27,558 nt of DNA from an uncultured virus (IMG/VR IMGVR_UViG_3300028490_000394) (lineage: Duplodnaviria; Heunggongvirae; Uroviricota; Caudoviricetes): the IMG/VR virus record IMGVR_UViG_3300028490_000394, one strand, 5' to 3'. How positions within the stretch are numbered: position 1 is the stretch's first letter; each line of letters opens with the position of its first letter. The notes under the pieces were generated by a model that had not been told where the DNA came from, did no database searches, and worked only from the letters and a program-made list of their open reading frames with translations. The position numbers and the translations under genes were made by a program. Shown piece after piece: positions 2,002 to 25,967 of this stretch.

Positions 2002-3066
2002 ATGGATTTTATTGACAAGGTTAACGAACTTTCTATTCGTGCTAAAAAAATTATAAACTTAGAAAACTCACTTCAAACAGAAGAGGCTACAAAAAACGCA
2101 TTAGTCATGCCTTTTATTCAAACATTAGGATTTGATATTTTTGATCCTAGTGAAGTTATTCCTGAATATACAGCTGATCATGGTTTAAAGAAAGGTGAAA
2201 AAGTTGACTATGCTATAAAAAAAGATAATGAATTAATTATTATTATAGAGTGTAAAAAATTAGGAGCTAATCTTATTGAAAATAATACTGGTCAACTTTT
2301 CCGTTATTTTTCTGTTTCTAATTCTAGAGTTGGTATTCTTACTGACGGAATCTATTATTTATTTTTCTCTGATCTTGACAATCCAAATAAAATGGACGAA
2401 AAACCTTTTTTTAAATTTAATATAACTGAATTTACTGAAGAAGATATTCTGACATTAAAAAGATTTTCAAAAAATAAATTTGATACAAACAAAATAATCA
2501 GTTCTGCAAATAATTTAAAATATCATAATGAACTTTTATTTCTTATTCAATCAGAATTCTTAAATCCTAGTGAAGATTTTTTAAAATATTTTATTCGTAA
2601 AGTTTATGAGAGAAAGATCACAAGTTCTGTTCATGAAAAGTTATCTTCAATTACAAAACAAGCTATGAATGATTTTATTAATAAAAAGGTCGAAGAGAGG
2701 TTTAAAAATGCATTAGAAGTATCTCCTGTATCACTTCCCACAACAGATAGTGATTCTTTTGTTTCTGAAATCATTACCACTGAAGAAGAAGTTGAAGGGT
2801 TCCGTATTATTCAAGCAATTTGTTCTGAATTTGCTGAACCCTCTGATATAATCATGCGTGACGCCAAAAGTTACTGTGCCGTATTGTATAAAGACAATAA
2901 TCGAAAACCAATTGTACGTATGCATTTTAATGGGAAAGTTAATAAGATTACATTGTTTTCTTCTACTGAGGAAAAACTTGAATTAACAAAACTAAGTGAC
3001 ATTTTTTTATATAGAAGTAAGATTCTTCATACTCTTAATCAGTATATTGAGCTTGAGAACAAATAA
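2002..3066 (+). CDS. Type I restriction enzyme HsdR N-terminal-domain (PD-(D/E)xK) protein, COG4748-like
   Basis: TEEATKNALVMPFI..LG.DIF.P.EV.PE, GEKVDYAI, IIECK, QLFRYF, GILTDG, and C-terminal IITTEEE.EG / DNNRKPI.R motifs; no helicase, HsdM or HsdS in the window. Confidence 0.85.
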   Translation: MDFIDKVNELSIRAKKIINLENSLQTEEATKNALVMPFIQTLGFDIFDPSEVIPEYTADHGLKKGEKVDYAIKKDNELIIIIECKKLGANLIENNTGQLFRYFSVSNSRVGILTDGIYYLFFSDLDNPNKMDEKPFFKFNITEFTEEDILTLKRFSKNKFDTNKIISSANNLKYHNELLFLIQSEFLNPSEDFLKYFIRKVYERKITSSVHEKLSSITKQAMNDFINKKVEERFKNALEVSPVSLPTTDSDSFVSEIITTEEEVEGFRIIQAICSEFAEPSDIIMRDAKSYCAVLYKDNNRKPIVRMHFNGKVNKITLFSSTEEKLELTKLSDIFLYRSKILHTLNQYIELENK

Positions 3067-13556: not shown

Positions 13557-14033
13557 CTACTTTATTGCTGTTATCTGTTGTATTACTCCACCTCTATTTA
13601 GGCAGTTTGATATCCAATATCCTTGATATTTAGACCCGTCCAATGTTAATAAGTCTTTATCAAATATATATATTGATTGGCACTTTTCTTGTAATGCTGT
13701 GCTTCTTGAGGAAAAATACAATATTTTATCTTTTGATATATTTATATTTATCCCTGTATTGCTCGCATTTTTACATGCACCATTTATTGCATTTACCTGG
13801 TATCCAAATACATTCCCTGGCACGTCTGTGCAACTACCTGTTAGATTTGCTCCTGTTAATTTCGTATGCTCCTGAAATATTGATATTGAAGCTAACTTAA
13901 TATCGTTTTTCATTGCTGTTATCTTTGCTGCTCTAGTTGAATCATTAAGCTTTGAAATAGCAAAGCCTGCTAAGATTGAGATAATTGCCATTACAAATAA
14001 TAACTCTACTAATGTGAACGCCTTTCTTTTCAT
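13557..14033 (-). CDS. Prepilin-type N-terminal cleavage/methylation protein (type IV pilin or pseudopilin)
   Basis: MKRKA|FTLVELLFVMAIISILAGFAI with E5; four Cys in the head domain. Confidence 0.9.
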   Translation of the reverse strand: MKRKAFTLVELLFVMAIISILAGFAISKLNDSTRAAKITAMKNDIKLASISIFQEHTKLTGANLTGSCTDVPGNVFGYQVNAINGACKNASNTGININISKDKILYFSSRSTALQEKCQSIYIFDKDLLTLDGSKYQGYWISNCLNRGGVIQQITAIK

Positions 14034-15951: not shown

Positions 15952-16398
15952 TTATTCTGCGAAAATAAGGTGTCCATAACTTGAATTGAAAAATGCTCTT
16001 GGTGCATAAAAACCTGTTGAGGCACCTTTTACTTCACTATTATAAACATTTACGTTAAATACTTTTTCCGGAGGAGTACCTAATGTTTGTGAACTCATTG
16101 CTATTTTATTTCCTTTTGACATTGGAATTTTATAATTTGTTCCATTTACTGTTACCGTTACTATACCATTCGCGTCTGGACTTACTATTCCATATAATGT
16201 TGCATATGTATTGTGATCTAAATGTATCTGATTTTGAATATTTATTGCTGTTCTCGCGTCTTGTTTCATTGAGGCAATTAATGCTATTCTTGTTGAATCA
16301 TTAAGATTTGCAATTGCAAATCCTGCCAAGATTGAGATAATTGCCATTACAAATAGTAATTCTACTAATGTGAAGGCTTTTTTGATTGTTCTTTTCAT
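15952..16398 (-). CDS. Prepilin-type protein (type IV pilin or pseudopilin)
   Basis: KKA|FTLVELLFVMAIISILAGFAI..LNDSTR, near-identical N-terminus to 13557..14033. Confidence 0.9.
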   Translation of the reverse strand: MKRTIKKAFTLVELLFVMAIISILAGFAIANLNDSTRIALIASMKQDARTAINIQNQIHLDHNTYATLYGIVSPDANGIVTVTVNGTNYKIPMSKGNKIAMSSQTLGTPPEKVFNVNVYNSEVKGASTGFYAPRAFFNSSYGHLIFAE

Positions 16399-16445
16399 AA
16401 AAACTCCTTTATCTTAAATATAAAGAGTTTAAAAAAAATCGGATA

Positions 16446-16694
16446 TTAAACAGAGACCGGGCCTAGATTATATGGTTTTTCTTTTTTCTTTGAGTTCTTT
16501 TTATCTTCATAGTATTTTACGGTAAATTTAAACGTTAGTACTACCCAAATAATAAAAAGGATCCCTGTTACTATCATTACCTGTAAACTAAATATTTTTA
16601 TATCGTATTTTGGAAATATACTCATTGCTGAAATCCAACCTATCATTATAAAGTTCATTGTGTGAAATAGTATTTTTAAAAGTTTGTAGGACAT
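16446..16694 (-). CDS. Small two-TM membrane protein
   Basis: 82 aa, AGGAG RBS; directly downstream of the ncRNA array on the same strand. Confidence 0.7.
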   Translation of the reverse strand: MSYKLLKILFHTMNFIMIGWISAMSIFPKYDIKIFSLQVMIVTGILFIIWVVLTFKFTVKYYEDKKNSKKKEKPYNLGPVSV

Positions 16695-16780
16695 GTTTTC
16701 TCCTGAAGTTAGTTACCCTCATACTTATTACATAATACAGGATATGCTCCTGTGGTGCAAAAAGCTTTTGGGTAATTTAG

Positions 16781-16849
16781 TGCTTAATAATGGACTCGAA
16801 CCACTGACCAACCTATAAAGGCGCGCTCTACCAACTGAGCTAATTAAAC
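16781..16849 (-). ncRNA. tRNA-like RNA 1, collapsed anticodon arm
   Basis: GTTTAAT/ATTAAGC-A acceptor, GCTC-AGTTGGTA-GAGC D arm, AGTGG-TTCGAGT-CCATT T arm; anticodon arm GCCT-TTAT-AGGT. Confidence 0.85.
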
Positions 16850-16939
16850 ATATTTACATAATCTTAACTTAGTACTTCGAAATTCGCCGTTTCTTCCTAA
16901 ATTAAGACCATTAGAGGTATTTCAATGGATATTGAATTT

Positions 16940-17016
16940 TGGTGCCGGTTACTGGACTTGAACCAATGACCTTCCAGAGTCACCCCTGGCTGCTCTATTC
17001 GCTGAGCTAAACCGGC
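16940..17016 (-). ncRNA. tRNA-like RNA 2, GNRA-capped anticodon arm, encoded CCA
   Basis: GCCGGTT/AACCGGC-A-CCA; D and T arms intact; CCAGGG-GTGA-CTCTGG in place of a 7-nt loop. Confidence 0.85.
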
Positions 17017-17022
17017 ATTCGT

Positions 17023-17175
17023 GCTACAACATTACATTATCTAACCCTGTACAGTGCTAGATACGTAATTTTGCCTATGACCTAGTTCAGTAGGTTCATA
17101 GGTCCTTATTTCATAAAGTCTGAACACATGAAGCTGTAGCTATAAACTATCCAATGATAACTTATAGCTAAAGTC
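17023..17175 (-). ncRNA. Structured repeat RNA, unit 1
   Basis: Hairpin 17137-17170; closing stem GCTACAGC/GTTGTAGC; loops GTTCAG and CTGAAC are complementary. Confidence 0.75.
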
Positions 17176-17186
17176 TCTGTTTTTTT

Positions 17187-17285
17187 TGCCTGGAAAGGGA
17201 TTCGAACCCCTGACCTGTATCCTTTCATTAAGCTACTTTATTCACTTAACTCCTGGCTCCGCTCTCCCGCTGAGCTATCGCAGAC
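17187..17285 (-). ncRNA. tRNA-like RNA 3, anticodon arm replaced by a ~43-nt insert
   Basis: GTCTG(C)GA/TCCAGGC-A; GCTC-AGCGGGA-GAGC; AGGGG-TTCGAAT-CCCTT; insert contains a TTAAGT/GCTTAA stem. Confidence 0.8.
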
Positions 17286-17293
17286 ATATTTGA

Positions 17294-17450
17294 GTTACAA
17301 CTAACCTTGATTAATCTCAGTTTATTTAGACTGTAAAATAAGTAAGTATATTACCGTCTTTTATTTCGTATATAGGTCTTACTCCTATTGAATTATCATT
17401 CTACGAAGCTGTAACAATAAAGTATCCAATGATAACTTATTGTTAAAGCC
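17294..17450 (-). ncRNA. Structured repeat RNA, unit 2
   Basis: Hairpin 17412-17445; GTTACAGC/GTTGTAAC; loops AGTAAG and CTTACT. Confidence 0.75.
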
Positions 17451-17454
17451 TATA

Positions 17455-17611
17455 CTGTTACAGTCAATCCAGATTTTGCTCCTCCAGATTAAACTTTTGT
17501 CCGAATGTAAATAAGTACACTCTTTTGAAGACTTAAGATCCTTTTATAGTCTTATTCCTATTTTAGAAACTGTAACAGTAAACTATCCTATGATAACTTA
17601 ATGTTAGAGTC
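17455..17611 (-). ncRNA. Structured repeat RNA, unit 3
   Basis: Hairpin 17573-17606; CTGTTACAGT/ACTGTAACAG; loops AATAAG and CTTATT. Confidence 0.75.
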
Positions 17612-17615
17612 TTTT

Positions 17616-17770
17616 GTACAACTAACCTAGATTTTGCTGGTCTAGGTTTATACAAGATACGAATGCAATTAAGTACACCCTAATAATATCTTGTACCTCA
17701 TATATAGGCTTAATCCTACTATCACGAAGTTGTAACAATAAACTATCCAATGATAACTTATTGTTAAAGC
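17616..17770 (-). ncRNA. Structured repeat RNA, unit 4
   Basis: Hairpin 17733-17766; TACAACT/AGTTGTA; loops ATTAAG and CTTAAT. Confidence 0.75.
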
Positions 17771-17776
17771 TTAGTG

Positions 17777-17845
17777 TGCCAAGTGAGAGATTCGAACTCC
17801 CGACGCGACCTTAAAGGTCCGCTCTACCAACTGAGCTAACTTGAC
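17777..17845 (-). ncRNA. tRNA-like RNA 4, 3-nt anticodon loop
   Basis: GTCAAGT/ACTTGGC-A; GCTC-AGTTGGTA-GAGC; GACCT-TTA-AGGTC; GGGAG-TTCGAAT-CTCTC. Confidence 0.85.
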
Positions 17846-17849
17846 TTCG

Positions 17850-17946
17850 TAAGTGCATATAGGGTTTTGCTAGGTTACTGCAGTACCGCATACCTATGTT
17901 TTACCATATTCTTTCATGGTCTGTCTTCGCTAGACGAATACACTTA
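17850..17946 (-). ncRNA. Multi-branched structured RNA candidate
   Basis: Closing stem TAAGTGTA/TGCACTTA enclosing GTCT/AGAC, ACCATG/TATGGT and ATAGG/CCTAT stems; begins just after a TATAAT. Confidence 0.6.
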
Positions 17947-17950
17947 ACAT

Positions 17951-17977
17951 ATTATATCTAAAGTTTCCTTTAGGTTT
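17951..17977 (-). promoter_or_regulatory. Sigma70-type promoter of the ncRNA array
   Basis: AAAGGAAACTTTAGATATAAT; near-duplicate AAAGGCAACTTTAGATATACT at 18054-18074. Confidence 0.65.
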
Positions 17978-18047
17978 GCTGATTAAGGGACTCGAACCCT
18001 TGACATACCCTTTCAGATAAACTCTCTCCCGCCTGAGTTAAATCAAC
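17977..18047 (-). ncRNA. tRNA-like RNA 5, GAAA tetraloop in place of the anticodon loop
   Basis: GTTGATT/AATCAGC-A; ACTC/GAGT D stem; TATCT-GAAA-GGGTA; AAGGG-TTCGAGT-CCCTT. Confidence 0.8.
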
Positions 18048-18053
18048 TTATAT

Positions 18054-18077
18054 AGTATATCTAAAGTTGCCTTTGAT
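18054..18077 (-). promoter_or_regulatory. Promoter for tRNA-like RNA 5
   Basis: TATACT at 18059-18054; predicted +1 coincides with the RNA 5' end near 18047. Confidence 0.6.
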
Positions 18078-18087
18078 ATACCTTACC

Positions 18088-18233
18088 GTACTTAGGGTTG
18101 GATTTGAACCAACCTTTGCAATTTATTGCTTACCCATTTCATTGTATATAGCGATTATGTGGAATCGAACCACGTCAGCCCGTGTCTTTCACGACCTTTT
18201 TGCCTGTTCCCGCTGTATATACAACCTAAATAC
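18088..18233 (-). ncRNA. Nested double-T-loop tRNA-like RNA
   Basis: Outer GTATTTAG/CTAAGTAC stem plus GGTTGG-TTCAAAT-CCAACC; inner TTGTATATA/TATATACAA stem enclosing GTGG-TTCGATT-CCAC; TATAAT at 18245-18240. Confidence 0.75.
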
Positions 18234-18257
18234 AAGAATATTATAACATACTTACCC

Positions 18258-18854
18258 TTAAGTTCTGTTTACTAATAGTAACATACTCTTTTGAATAATA
18301 TCCTCTACCTCTAGTATATGCTGTCTATATCTCAAAGTAAACAGTTTCATATTATTTCTTAAGACGTTGTCTGGATCCATTAATACTTTTTGATATAACC
18401 CTACACTATCCTCCATTCTATATTCATGTGTACTCGTTAATATTCTTTTGAAGAATAATGGTTGTTGGATTTTACTTAAATTAAAAACCTCCTCCATGTA
18501 GCAGTAGTCAAAAACCTTAAACAGCTCATTTACTATAAACATGTTTTGTGTACCCTTTATTAACTCTTCTTTTGCCGTTCCTGCTTTCCATATCATATCA
18601 AACATTATATCTGCAAAATCATAATCAATATTTTCTGGGATAATCAACTTCTTAAAGTCTTTTTGTAATAAATTTTTATTACCTTTATCTGTTTGTACTT
18701 GACCAAATCTTGTTCTACTTACAAGTAACATATACTTTGCTGCTGTACTTAAAAATATAGCATTTGGACTAAATAGCTCTCTTTGATATCCCGTTAGATA
18801 TTTGAATATTTCTTGACGTAATGTAGAGCCTGTTTTATTTGTTGTTCTTAGCAT
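18258..18854 (-). CDS. Hypothetical helical protein immediately upstream of the ncRNA array
   Basis: 198 aa; AAGGA RBS and GGTATAAT promoter. Confidence 0.8.
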   Translation of the reverse strand: MLRTTNKTGSTLRQEIFKYLTGYQRELFSPNAIFLSTAAKYMLLVSRTRFGQVQTDKGNKNLLQKDFKKLIIPENIDYDFADIMFDMIWKAGTAKEELIKGTQNMFIVNELFKVFDYCYMEEVFNLSKIQQPLFFKRILTSTHEYRMEDSVGLYQKVLMDPDNVLRNNMKLFTLRYRQHILEVEDIIQKSMLLLVNRT

Positions 18855-23669: not shown

Positions 23670-24170
23670 TTAGAACACTTTATTAAAAGCATTTAATTCA
23701 AAGTTGTTTTTCAACTCCACATTCTTAATTTCTCCATAGATATTCAACTCCAGCCATACTGTTTCTTTTGTACGACCTAGAACTTTATATCTCGAAATCA
23801 TTGGGATCTTAATATCTTCTTTTACTGAGGTAAGTAAACTTACTCCTGAATTGTCTTTGAATTGATTTTTAAAAACAAAGAATAAAGAATCTATATCTTT
23901 TACGTCGTTAATGAAATCTTTGAATAGTCTCATATAACTTTTTTCTGTATTCAGTTCTTTAAGTGCAACTTCTAACATTTCTTTCTCTTCTGTAGTAATT
24001 GTCTGGTCTTCTAAAAACACTTCAAATTTACTTTTCCATTTTTTTGAAAAGTATCCTATTGTATAGTTATCAGTCTCTCCTAAACTTACTACAATTCCTA
24101 TCCCTGGTGCTACTAATAGTAAAACCATATCACCGCCGTTTTCTTTATATAATCCTGGTATAAATGACAT
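23670..24170 (-). CDS. F.PG.Y family paralogue 1
   Basis: Start ATG 24170; ISRYKVLG..KETVWLELNIYGE. Confidence 0.8.
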   Translation of the reverse strand: MSFIPGLYKENGGDMVLLLVAPGIGIVVSLGETDNYTIGYFSKKWKSKFEVFLEDQTITTEEKEMLEVALKELNTEKSYMRLFKDFINDVKDIDSLFFVFKNQFKDNSGVSLLTSVKEDIKIPMISRYKVLGRTKETVWLELNIYGEIKNVELKNNFELNAFNKVF

Positions 24171-24286
24171 ATTTTCTCCATTCAAAATTTCTAGTATTAA
24201 AAATAAATACTGATATCATGTTATAGACATTCTTTTACCCTTTTAGACTCTTTCTAGACCTGACCCCTTACTTGGGGTTTGGTAGA

Positions 24287-24769
24287 TTAAAACACTTCTT
24301 TAAATGCCTTTAGCGCATATAAAGTGTCTAATTCTAATTCTCTTTTTTCTCCATATATATTTACTTCGATCCAAGTCGTTTCTTTATATGAACCTAATAT
24401 CTCATATCTTGATATTGAAGATACCTTTATGGCTTCTTTATCTGAAACTAGAACTTTTTCTTTTCTATGATTTGTTCTTAACTCAAATATTTCTGTTTTT
24501 CCAGATAGATAGAAAAGTAATTTAAACTTTTCTTTATCTGTCATAATTTTATCTTCTTTTACTATATTTTGAAGTTTTTGTGTTAACTCAGCCTCTAGAT
24601 ATTTGTTATCTAGCCTTGTGTTAAAGTCTCTATGCCATGTACTTGAATATCTCCCTAATACTGGCTCTGTTTCGGTTGTATTCACTGTTATTCCAGTCTT
24701 TTCTTTGACTAAAAATAACATTGATTGGCTTCCTTCTCTGGTGTATAGTCCAGGTTTGAAATCTGTCAT
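24287..24769 (-). CDS. F.PG.Y family paralogue 2
   Basis: Start ATG 24769; ISRYEILG..KETTWIEVNIYGE. Confidence 0.8.
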   Translation of the reverse strand: MTDFKPGLYTREGSQSMLFLVKEKTGITVNTTETEPVLGRYSSTWHRDFNTRLDNKYLEAELTQKLQNIVKEDKIMTDKEKFKLLFYLSGKTEIFELRTNHRKEKVLVSDKEAIKVSSISRYEILGSYKETTWIEVNIYGEKRELELDTLYALKAFKEVF

Positions 24770-24880
24770 ATTGTTGTCCTTGTATAATAGTCTAGTATTC
24801 TTTTGAAATACTGATTCTATGTTATAAGACAAGTTGGACCATTCTGTTTGGTCCGGGCTGCTACAAGTGTAGCTGCAGCA

Positions 24881-25417
24881 TTATGGTGCGTTAAAGCCTT
24901 CAAATTCTTTCTTTAAGTTATTGAAACCTTGTAGTTCTGTTAATAATCTTTTGAATACTTCTAACTTTACTTCTATTTGAGACAGCTCTCCATAAACAAG
25001 CACTTCCAGTATGACTGTTGTCTCTGAAGTTTTTAATTTCTTATATCTATTGATATCTAATACATTTATATGTTCAGAATCACTTATGATAAAATGTCTA
25101 TCGTCGCTTACTTTATGAAAGCTTTTAAACACTTGATCTTTTCCTAACAATTGTAAAAACTGGCGTTTCTCTGTTGTTGGGATTTTAGTACTTAAGCTAA
25201 TTAAATCTAACAAGTCTAATGAATCTCTCAGTGACGCGTCAAAGTCAACTTTCTCTGAATAATGCAGTAGACCCGTCTCGTCTGTGTAATAACCTTCAAT
25301 TACTTGAGAATTTTCTTCTTCTGTATAGACACAAACACCCTCTGTTGGTGTAATCTTTGCAAAGATCTGCTTTGCTTCTGTGGTTAGGGCATAAAAGCCT
25401 GGTTGAAATGTTGTCAT
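24881..25417 (-). CDS. F.PG.Y family paralogue 3
   Basis: FQPGFY; INRYKKL...LEVLVYGE. Confidence 0.8.
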   Translation of the reverse strand: MTTFQPGFYALTTEAKQIFAKITPTEGVCVYTEEENSQVIEGYYTDETGLLHYSEKVDFDASLRDSLDLLDLISLSTKIPTTEKRQFLQLLGKDQVFKSFHKVSDDRHFIISDSEHINVLDINRYKKLKTSETTVILEVLVYGELSQIEVKLEVFKRLLTELQGFNNLKKEFEGFNAP

Positions 25418-25469
25418 TTAAGACTCCTTAAAAAATAAATTTGTAATATGTTATGGGACTTTAGTCCCC

Positions 25470-25967
25470 CTAAGCTGCTGTGTAATCTTCTTTAAATTTT
25501 TCTAAATTTGCATGGAATGTATCTATTCTTATTTTTATTACTTCCCCGTTTAAACTCACTTCTAAAACCGCATTGAATGGATTCCTATTCTCCATTACTC
25601 TATATCTTGATATATCTTTTAACCGGATAACCTCTCCCGCTTCATTTGATAGTATCCCTTGAATTAGCTTGAATGTTATGCTTTTCCCACTTAGATATTC
25701 TAACATTAACATTTTCTCATTGTAGTGAATTGAGTTGTTTAACTCTATCAATTCTATAAACTCTTCTCTCTTGTTTTTATCTAGATCCAGCTCCATTTTC
25801 TTTGAATCATTTATTCCTATCTCTTTAGTTATGTCTTCTTCCCAATCTTCTGCATATTTACCTATATCTTTTTCTACACCACCAGTTAATAATATTCCAA
25901 CCCCTGGTCTTACTAGTAATAGTACTGCAGTCTTCCATTTCTCTCTGTATATTCCAACTTTAAACAT
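25470..25967 (-). CDS. F.PG.Y family paralogue 4
   Basis: FKVGIY; ISRYRVM...LEVSLNGE. Confidence 0.8.
   Translation of the reverse strand: MFKVGIYREKWKTAVLLLVRPGVGILLTGGVEKDIGKYAEDWEEDITKEIGINDSKKMELDLDKNKREEFIELIELNNSIHYNEKMLMLEYLSGKSITFKLIQGILSNEAGEVIRLKDISRYRVMENRNPFNAVLEVSLNGEVIKIRIDTFHANLEKFKEDYTAA

Follow-up and report, generated by a model that had tools for sequence, protein, structure and literature searches.

Four paralogous units with a selected RNA fold and a covarying loop-loop pairing in the tRNA-like island of an uncultured virus

The 27,558 nucleotides (nt) of IMG/VR record IMGVR_UViG_3300028490_000394, an uncultured virus of the Caudoviricetes, were analysed here as a single window, and within it lies a non-coding island of about 1.5 kb whose repeated sequences raise a simple question: what do they encode? 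We found that positions 17023-17766 of the minus strand hold four paralogous units, each of 148-152 nt, in which a 15-base-pair (bp) hairpin, P0, is followed by a cloverleaf-like four-way junction made of a closing stem, P1, and three arms, P2, P3 and P4. L2, a 6-mer at the tip of P2, and L3, the apical loop of P3, are exact reverse complements with perfect Watson-Crick pairing in 4/4 units. The fold is genuine, strand-specific and selected, its loop-loop pairing is well supported, and it has been seen so far in one lineage. The units are probably paralogous minus-strand genes for a structured non-coding RNA, about 150 nt long, that has not been catalogued before.

Four minus-strand units and their common fold

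A repeat finder returned a 4-copy direct-repeat family over the hairpin (50 nt, 80-100% identical, spacing 275/161/160). The core of this hairpin occurs four times in the window, each time on the minus strand, where 0.06 occurrences are expected by chance; 0/100 shuffles reached four. These findings bear out the four minus-strand copies that an earlier note had described from the letters of the sequence. The strand call of that note also holds, because the hairpins carry tandem G.U pairs, the fold z-scores are lower on the minus strand, and all tRNA-like genes of the island share that strand. The z-scores, obtained with 100 dinucleotide shuffles for each unit, were -3.0 to -4.9 on the minus strand and -0.3 to -3.8 on the plus strand, and the minus strand was lower in 4/4 units. 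The longest open reading frame (ORF) within any unit is 42 amino acids (aa). The four units are built as follows.

17617..17766, minus strand: unit 4; P0 17766-17733; P1 17734-17728 with 17623-17617; P2 17727-17723 with 17702-17698; P2' 17719-17715 with 17708-17704; L2 17714-17709; P3 17696-17686 with 17660-17650; P3' 17680-17674 with 17667-17661; L3 17673-17668; P4 17648-17641 with 17631-17624, loop CCAGCAAAA
17455..17606, minus strand: unit 3; P0 17606-17573, with one U x C mismatch; P1 17578-17569 with 17464-17455, 10 bp, sharing 6 nt with P0; L2 17556-17551; P3' 17522-17516 with 17509-17503; L3 17515-17510; P4 17490-17483 with 17473-17466, with tandem G.U and loop GGAGCAAAA
17294..17445, minus strand: unit 2; P0 17445-17412, with one U x C; P1 17415-17408 with 17301-17294; P2 17407-17402 with 17370-17365; P2' 17388-17384 with 17376-17372; L2 17383-17378; P3' 17354-17347 with 17340-17333; L3 17346-17341; P4 degenerate, without the AGCAAAA loop
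17023..17170, minus strand: unit 1, the most diverged copy; P0 17170-17137, containing two compensatory pairs; P1 17140-17133 with 17030-17023; P2 17132-17128 with 17114-17110, closing a 13-nt loop that contains L2 17125-17120; P3/P3' 17102-17074; L3 17090-17085; long P4 hairpin 17069-17031

P0 is a 15-bp hairpin with a 4-nt loop in every unit, and P1 closes the junction with 7-10 bp. The basal stem of P2 has 4-6 bp and is followed in units 2-4 by an internal loop and an upper stem of 4-5 bp capped by L2; the upper stem is missing from unit 1, in which P4 is also different and longer. P3 has a lower stem whose length varies and, above it, a stem of 5-8 bp, which carries the 6-nt L3 as its cap, and P4 in units 3 and 4 has 8 bp and the loop NNAGCAAAA. 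The minimum free energy (MFE) fold of unit 4 has the same architecture. The conserved 34-nt hairpin of the earlier note is present in all four units, with the amendment that the hairpin of unit 3 carries one U x C mismatch. As that note had it, the compensatory changes in unit 1 convert one A-U pair to G-C and another to U-A, tandem G.U/U.G pairs are found in 3/4 hairpins (at this site unit 2 combines U x C with G.U), and the closing stems covary through the pairs that it had quoted.

A direct check of the sequence confirmed all four loop complements at the positions previously claimed for them (L2/L3, minus strand).

Unit 1: GTTCAG/CTGAAC, 17120-25/17085-90
Unit 2: AGTAAG/CTTACT, 17378-83/17341-46
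Unit 3: AATAAG/CTTATT, 17551-56/17510-15
Unit 4: ATTAAG/CTTAAT, 17709-14/17668-73

Three of the six loop pairs covary. Pair 2 reads U-A, G-C, A-U and U-A in units 1-4, and thus takes three Watson-Crick forms, while pairs 1 and 4 switch in unit 1; these changes amount to at least four double substitutions, with zero uncompensated. Other perfect complementary 6-mer pairs within each unit fall nearly all in the helices described above. Copy specificity is leaky: L2 of unit 2 pairs with L3 of unit 3 over six positions, one of them a G.U. These data show that the L2-L3 pairing has been retained through compensatory change in every copy.

We built a covariance model, R1, from units 3 and 4 only, which score 154.8 and 174.1 bits, respectively. 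R1 recovered both units that were absent from the model, each at full length: unit 2 with 60.8 bits (E 4.5e-15) and unit 1 with 44.7 bits (E 1.1e-10). Over the 27.5-kb window it found no further copy, and returned otherwise only plus-strand echoes of the palindromic hairpin. This recovery of two units by a model of the other two indicates that homology among the four copies extends over their entire length.

Pairs were counted on A5, a model-fitted alignment of the four units to which the loop pairing was added as a pseudoknot; the MAFFT alignments A1 and A2 misalign the unit interiors and were left out of the counting. We found that 90.6% of the 233 pair cells of A5 are standard pairs, compared with 34.2-38.8% in six slid controls, and that 23/62 pairs changed on both sides, compared with 3-7 in the slid controls; 0/500 shuffles attained any observed measure. 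A5 places L2 of unit 1 six columns off, and that row therefore counts against the pseudoknot, though the direct check finds it perfect. Covariation is seen in P0, P1, P2, P3', P4 and the loop-loop pairing, in agreement with the selected fold that had been proposed.

The hairpin and the closing stem are not independent of each other, a point absent from the earlier note. The last 2-6 nt of the P0 3' arm are also the first nucleotides of the P1 5' strand, such that full P0 and full P1 are mutually exclusive, and the energy gap between the two conformers is only 0.1-2.4 kcal/mol. In units 1-3, moreover, the first 4-5 letters recur at the 3' end, as UAGC, UAAC and UAACA in units 1, 2 and 3, respectively, as a result of which the G-C substitution of unit 1 is matched at three places. 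The sharing between P0 and P1, together with the end repeat, may reflect a strand-exchange switch, a processing intermediate in which P0 is removed and P1 completed, or the trace of a duplication.

The tRNA-like island around the units

In addition to the units, the island contains five tRNA-like genes, four of them with aberrant anticodon arms. This setting, which the earlier note does not mention, is the chief clue to how the units would be produced. On the minus strand the island is flanked by ORFs that end at 18258 and begin at 16694, with no ORF of at least 50 aa between them on that strand; the only such ORF in the island, of 59 aa, lies on the plus strand at 18067-18246, at the upstream edge. 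In the order of the elements, the tRNA-like gene 17845-17777 is followed by units 4, 3 and 2, the composite tRNA-like element 17292-17187, unit 1 and the tRNA-like gene 17016-16943. Units 4-3-2 thus stand head to tail with no tRNA between them, and next to a tRNA-like gene a unit either starts 10-16 nt after it or ends 6 nt before it.

17977..18047, minus strand: tRNA-like gene on the upstream side of the island; RF00005 36.5 bits; Gln(CUG) in relaxed ARAGORN, with a weak anticodon stem
17846..17976, minus strand: element Z, 131 nt, with a GNRA-loop 5' hairpin, a closing stem and three arms
17777..17845, minus strand: tRNA-like gene directly upstream of unit 4; RF00005 47.2 bits
17187..17292, minus strand: composite tRNA-like element between units 2 and 1; RF00005 20.9 bits over 17187-17257
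16943..17016, minus strand: tRNA-like gene 6 nt downstream of unit 1; RF00005 45.1 bits; CCA encoded
16781..16849, minus strand: tRNA-like gene; RF00005 44.0 bits; repeat D4; shortened anticodon arm

Four Rfam tRNA matches lie above the gathering score (36.5-47.2 bits), and the fifth (17257-17187, 20.9 bits) lies below it. Acceptor, D and T arms are good in the tRNA-like genes; their anticodon regions appear in the Rfam alignments as 3, 4, 8 and 10 unaligned letters, compared with an expected 5 or 7. At default settings ARAGORN called only two tRNA-like genes, each with a two-letter 'anticodon', and at relaxed settings it called a Gln(CUG), two 'Stop(tta)', in each of which two stem pairs are mismatched, and one 8-nt loop, 'gtga'. 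In the four genes above the gathering score, the anticodon loops thus measure about 3-6 or 8 nt, and reach 7 nt only where two mismatches are allowed in the stem. The anticodon arm of 17777..17845 has 13 nt rather than 17, and can be drawn as 5 bp with a 3-nt loop or as 3 bp with the 7-nt loop CUUUAAG; ARAGORN called this gene only when its threshold was relaxed, giving 'Stop(tta)' and an anticodon stem in which two pairs are mismatched. Its paralogue, 16781..16849, is 72% identical to it over 64 nt. The anticodon loop of 16943..17016 has 8 nt, or 6 nt when a G.U closes the loop, and was read by ARAGORN as a 2-nt 'anticodon' by default and as the 4-nt 'gtga' when relaxed. The composite element 17187..17292 joins a 5' acceptor/D-arm-like half, a GUUAAG/CUUAAU hairpin, a T-arm of repeat family D2/D3 and an acceptor 3' strand, and its fold is not distinctive (z -0.79). 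The strands of its hairpin look like the L2 and L3 letters of unit 4.

We read the tRNA-like elements as probably non-decoding; they may have been retained for those of their parts to which RNase P, RNase Z and the CCA-adding enzyme respond. The four above the gathering score could act as handles for processing without decoding, or could be tRNAs of an unusual suppressor or frameshift type. Recoding of the TAA stop, an idea prompted by the 'Stop(tta)' calls, finds no support in this window: the five largest ORFs have no internal TAA within their code-11 limits, and in this window read-through of TAA mainly appends TAA-rich flanks to the ORFs.

Element Z has a fold z of -2.86, with 2/200 shuffles equally good. 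It shares with the units the UUCGU that follows the closing stem and the AGCAAAA in the third arm, and has no complementary loops. R1 does not match it at E<=10; element Z is possibly a very diverged fifth relative of the units. A 23-nt repeat (18074-18052 and 17971-17949, minus strand; 91% identical) forms a small GNRA-type hairpin with GCAA or GAAA, and both copies sit just after a T-arm-containing element. The repeat also resembles a -10 stretch (TATAAT/TATACT), which leaves both a promoter and a hairpin for processing as candidate roles. Within 18234-18048 on the minus strand, short elements contain two further T-arm-like motifs, 18173-18160 and 18112-18099, and were called as tRNAs by neither Rfam nor ARAGORN; read by eye, the two ends of the element around the first motif form an enclosing stem of 9-12 bp.

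Searches for homologues and natural variants

A blastn search with 16400-18400 gave no match among 50,697 phage records (INPHARED). The hairpin-core pattern had 0 matches in IMG/VR, and was found at 11 loci in JGI metagenomes and 10 loci in GTDB genomes; a loop-relaxed pattern was found at 19 loci in IMG/VR. Each of these outside loci has one match only, and 11/11 metagenome matches lack the flanking remainder of the palindrome. Outward pairing beyond the core amounts to 0-4 bp in 28/29 other loci and to 7 bp in the remaining one (L032), with flanks unlike those of the units. We read all outside hairpin-pattern loci as chance matches. Patterns for P4/P1 and for P3' hit 7 loci and 1 locus in IMG/VR, respectively, with R1 scores of at most 10.4 bits (E 0.28 or worse); these loci appear coding, and no tRNAs were found in the four that were scanned. 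Altogether, sequence and pattern searches of INPHARED phages, IMG/VR, JGI metagenomes and GTDB genomes yielded no homologue of the units, which were seen elsewhere only as near-identical variants, at low depth, in three metagenome runs.

These variants come from contigs of depth 2-3.6, in three runs of two studies, that match stretches of the island at 95-99% identity; parts of the island without contig cover are uninformative on variation. Nine differences fall inside units, of which four preserve or restore pairs (17578, U x C to U-A; 17422, U x C to U.G; 17470, U.G to U-A; 17388, A-U to G.U), two are at unpaired positions (17395 and 17589), and three lose pairs at helix ends (17402 with 17403, at the top of P2, and 17765, the second P0 pair, in the zone where P0 and P1 compete). 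None of the nine lies in L2 or L3. In the tRNA-like gene 17845-17777, the changes 17835 G>A and 17822 C>T, seen in contigs of runs X1 and X2, turn the D-stem pair 11-24 from C-G to U-A, a compensatory change which indicates that the tRNA-like cloverleaves are themselves maintained. A single contig of run X1, with a depth of 3.2 and a short side of only 29 nt, runs from 17401 directly into 17725 and skips 323 nt. The junction, which we take as no more than a hint, creates a hybrid unit, with P0 and P1a of unit 4 and the body of unit 2, in which P1 would still pair, and leaves two units fewer; its position suggests recombination between the repeated hairpin/P1 regions.

The window is AT-rich (27-36% G+C) and reads well in code 11; 20/25 ORFs have no PHROG and 20/25 have no Pfam family. 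Recognised genes are a phage-common endonuclease, a nucleoside 2-deoxyribosyltransferase and two prepilin-type proteins, and on this gene content it is a reasoned guess that the fragment is phage-like. Relatives of the neighbouring proteins were found neither in IMG/VR nor, by tblastn, in phages, with the exception of the endonuclease (2002-3066), whose relatives occur in 19 phage records and all fall below 60% identity; for the 386-aa neighbour, the Protein Atlas gave no usable match. The minus-strand ORFs at 13557-14033 and 15952-16398 encode small proteins with prepilin-type N-terminal cleavage/methylation motifs. At 23670-25967, also on the minus strand, four consecutive ORFs encode 165-181 aa, and three of them are 25-27% identical (MAFFT) to the first (24881-25417); these ORFs may form a tandem paralogue family.

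Known systems and competing explanations

The earlier note had recognised no known family in the units, and Rfam release 15 (4227 models) agrees. A gathering scan of the window gave only the four tRNA matches, and scans of 16400-18400 and 16750-18260 at E<=10 gave no match above 17.2 bits on the units, the best sub-threshold ones being mir-6 (17.2 bits, plus strand; gathering 58), CRISPR-DR6 (15.7; 39) and gCoV-3UTR (11.3; 175.8). RF00005 does not match the units at E<=10 and relaxed ARAGORN calls no tRNA in them, which makes their junction cloverleaf-like in topology only. The pRNA, ROOL and GOLLD models likewise gave no match at E<=10 on the region. A CRISPR array or solitary CRISPR repeats were rejected, as the stretches between the hairpins are mutually homologous with a shared fold and the only CRISPR-DR match reaches 15.7 bits against a gathering score of 39. 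ToxI-type antitoxins consist of tandem repeats of about 34-36 nt beside a ToxN-type endoribonuclease gene. We rejected a ToxI-like, type III toxin-antitoxin reading, for the repeat period here is 160-275 nt and no toxin family was found in 25 ORFs (PHROGs, Pfam) or 33 ORFs (NCBIfam).

Several known RNAs resemble the units in part. The pRNA of phi29, of about 120-174 nt, is encoded by a single gene beside the packaging genes of phi29-like phages and has a three-way junction and covarying loops that form a 4-nt intermolecular pairing, which builds a ring on the portal. The units are like it in size, in a junction closing helix formed by the 5' and 3' ends, and in their two complementary, covarying loops; they differ in having four copies, a four-way junction, a 6-nt pairing and a tRNA-like island around them, and no portal or packaging gene was recognised among 25 ORFs (PHROGs, Pfam) or 33 ORFs (NCBIfam). 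Neighbouring junction arms are also held by a loop-loop contact in the purine and lysine riboswitch aptamers. Those aptamers are cis-regulatory elements of mRNA leaders with conserved ligand pockets, whereas the units stand in tandem among tRNA-like genes without a downstream ORF each. In context the units resemble the species 1 and 2 RNAs of phage T4, small stable RNAs that provide a precedent for excision by tRNA-processing enzymes; their genes, rnaC and rnaD (NC_000866, 70908-71247), lie directly downstream of tRNA-Arg in the tRNA cluster, on the same strand. T4 rnaC has a T-arm and looks tRNA-derived, whereas the units have no T-arm, and the fold of rnaD is unremarkable (z -0.83). On the T4 locus R1 matched neither gene, its best matches lying elsewhere there (E 0.4-0.6).

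The explanation that we favour, and hold to be probable, is that the units share transcripts with the tRNA-like elements, from which the enzymes of tRNA processing release them as stable, structured small RNAs. The island would be transcribed as one or a few precursors, in which host RNase P and 3' tRNA-processing enzymes, to judge from the positions of the elements, likely cut at the tRNA-like elements and free the units. Within the 4-3-2 run, the P0 hairpin would serve as a boundary, cleavage or end-protection signal, and the L2-L3 pairing would clamp two arms into a compact, nuclease-resistant particle. As a working guess, the stable RNA would bind a host or phage factor during infection, with a status like that of T4 species 1/2 or ROOL/GOLLD.

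Several points weigh against this explanation. What speaks for RNase P/Z processing, stability and function is the position of the units. The architecture is uneven (P4 is degenerate in unit 2, and unit 1 has another hairpin in its place and no upper P2), the MFE fold of unit 3 does not give the homologous P2, and the lower P3 stem is paired at only 74% in A5. A5 was itself fitted to the structure by the model, so that the alignment leans towards the fold; the data comprise just four sequences of one locus plus near-identical variants, and the shuffle statistics are inflated because the units are paralogues of shared ancestry. No homologue from an independent lineage turned up against which the pairs could be tested. 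Finally, the X1 contig hints that some relatives may have two units fewer, in which case not all copies would be required.

The units may instead lack a function of their own and act as structured spacers that mature or stabilise the tRNA-like transcripts, as nuclease entry sites or folding insulators. They do stand strictly between or beside tRNA-like genes, P0 at every unit start resembles a processing signal, and copy number appears to vary. A spacer, however, needs no four-way junction with a covarying loop contact in four diverged copies, and three units follow one another without a tRNA between them; we consider this improbable. We regard as very unlikely that each unit is a new self-cleaving ribozyme, separating tandem units and tRNA-like elements. 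The gaps of only 2-10 nt between tandem units would call for precise cutting, and several small ribozymes (hammerhead, hairpin and VS) are built as junctions whose arms dock, but no Rfam ribozyme matched at E<=10, and an invariant single-stranded core is lacking apart from the short motifs UUCGU and AGCAAAA, the latter absent from unit 2.

It is also conceivable, with a probability that we rate as slight at best, that the repeat acts as DNA rather than RNA, either as an element like a miniature inverted-repeat transposable element with P1 as its terminal inverted repeats or as operator or promoter palindromes (P0). P1 is legible as a terminal inverted repeat of 8-10 bp, units 1-3 each begin and end with a common UAGC or UAAC, one contig shows a recombinant form without two units, and the unit starts resemble a repeated upstream motif, ACTTTAG... 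Nevertheless, the internal helices and the loop pair covary despite sequence divergence, G.U pairs make the fold strand-specific, zero copies occur elsewhere in the window or in the four public collections, and a sigma-70 scan found 9 sites where 10.9 were expected, with 0 terminators. An integron attC reading of P1 was rejected, because its GTT...AAC order is opposite to that of attC core sites and no integrase family was found.

The L2-L3 pairing could also form between molecules. In that case same-unit copies would join into dimers, rings or larger assemblies, with the loop pairs as partly orthogonal addresses; we consider this unlikely, though worth keeping in view. The loops are fully complementary 6-mers, three of which differ at one covarying position, and P2 and P3 are unequal and variable in length (unit 4 has about 11 and 18 stacked layers, respectively, and unit 1 has 5 bp with a 13-nt loop and 12 bp), which does not favour one fixed intramolecular geometry. 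On the other hand, kissing of adjacent arms within one molecule is common among riboswitch aptamers, the pairing of unit 2 L2 with unit 3 L3 through one G.U makes specificity leaky, the units are far smaller than ROOL or GOLLD, and the present data do not discriminate intra- from intermolecular pairing. Of the earlier note's interpretation, the strand, the selected fold and the absence of a known family thus stand, and homo-oligomerisation or avoidance of cross-pairing is left unestablished. A more elaborate proposal, which we think doubtful, has the whole island as a modular kit, in which non-decoding tRNA-like elements are handles for RNase P/Z, four small junction RNAs are cut out, and copy-specific 6-nt loops join copies of the same unit into separate homo-oligomeric rings or cages; if true, it would parallel pRNA and the ROOL/GOLLD nanocages in miniature and with several addresses.

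In kind, the units resemble ROOL and GOLLD. According to Kretsch et al., Nature 2025 (PMC12286853), both are phage or prophage RNAs, often in or near tRNA islands, that are stabilised by covarying kissing loops; the GOLLD linker in some cases contains tRNAs, many GOLLD RNAs are longer than 800 nt, and ROOL is large. The same text provides a precedent for intermolecular pairing, in that a covarying kissing loop of ROOL, taken first as tertiary, turned out to be quaternary (PMC12286853). The units resemble these RNAs in lying within an island of tRNA-like genes, in their covarying kissing loops and in having an undefined function, and differ from them in that ROOL and GOLLD are large single-copy RNAs with conserved folds of their own, whereas the units are four tandem paralogues of about 150 nt with a simple junction.

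If real as an RNA family, the units are a small, tractable addition to the poorly understood structured RNAs of phage tRNA islands. Their four variants, each with its own matched loop pair, constitute a natural series of compensatory mutations that could separate intra- from intermolecular kissing, a question that cryo-electron microscopy has recently reopened for ROOL (PMC12286853). In addition, the non-standard anticodon arms of the neighbouring genes raise the idea that tRNA shapes may serve in this island as processing punctuation rather than for decoding.

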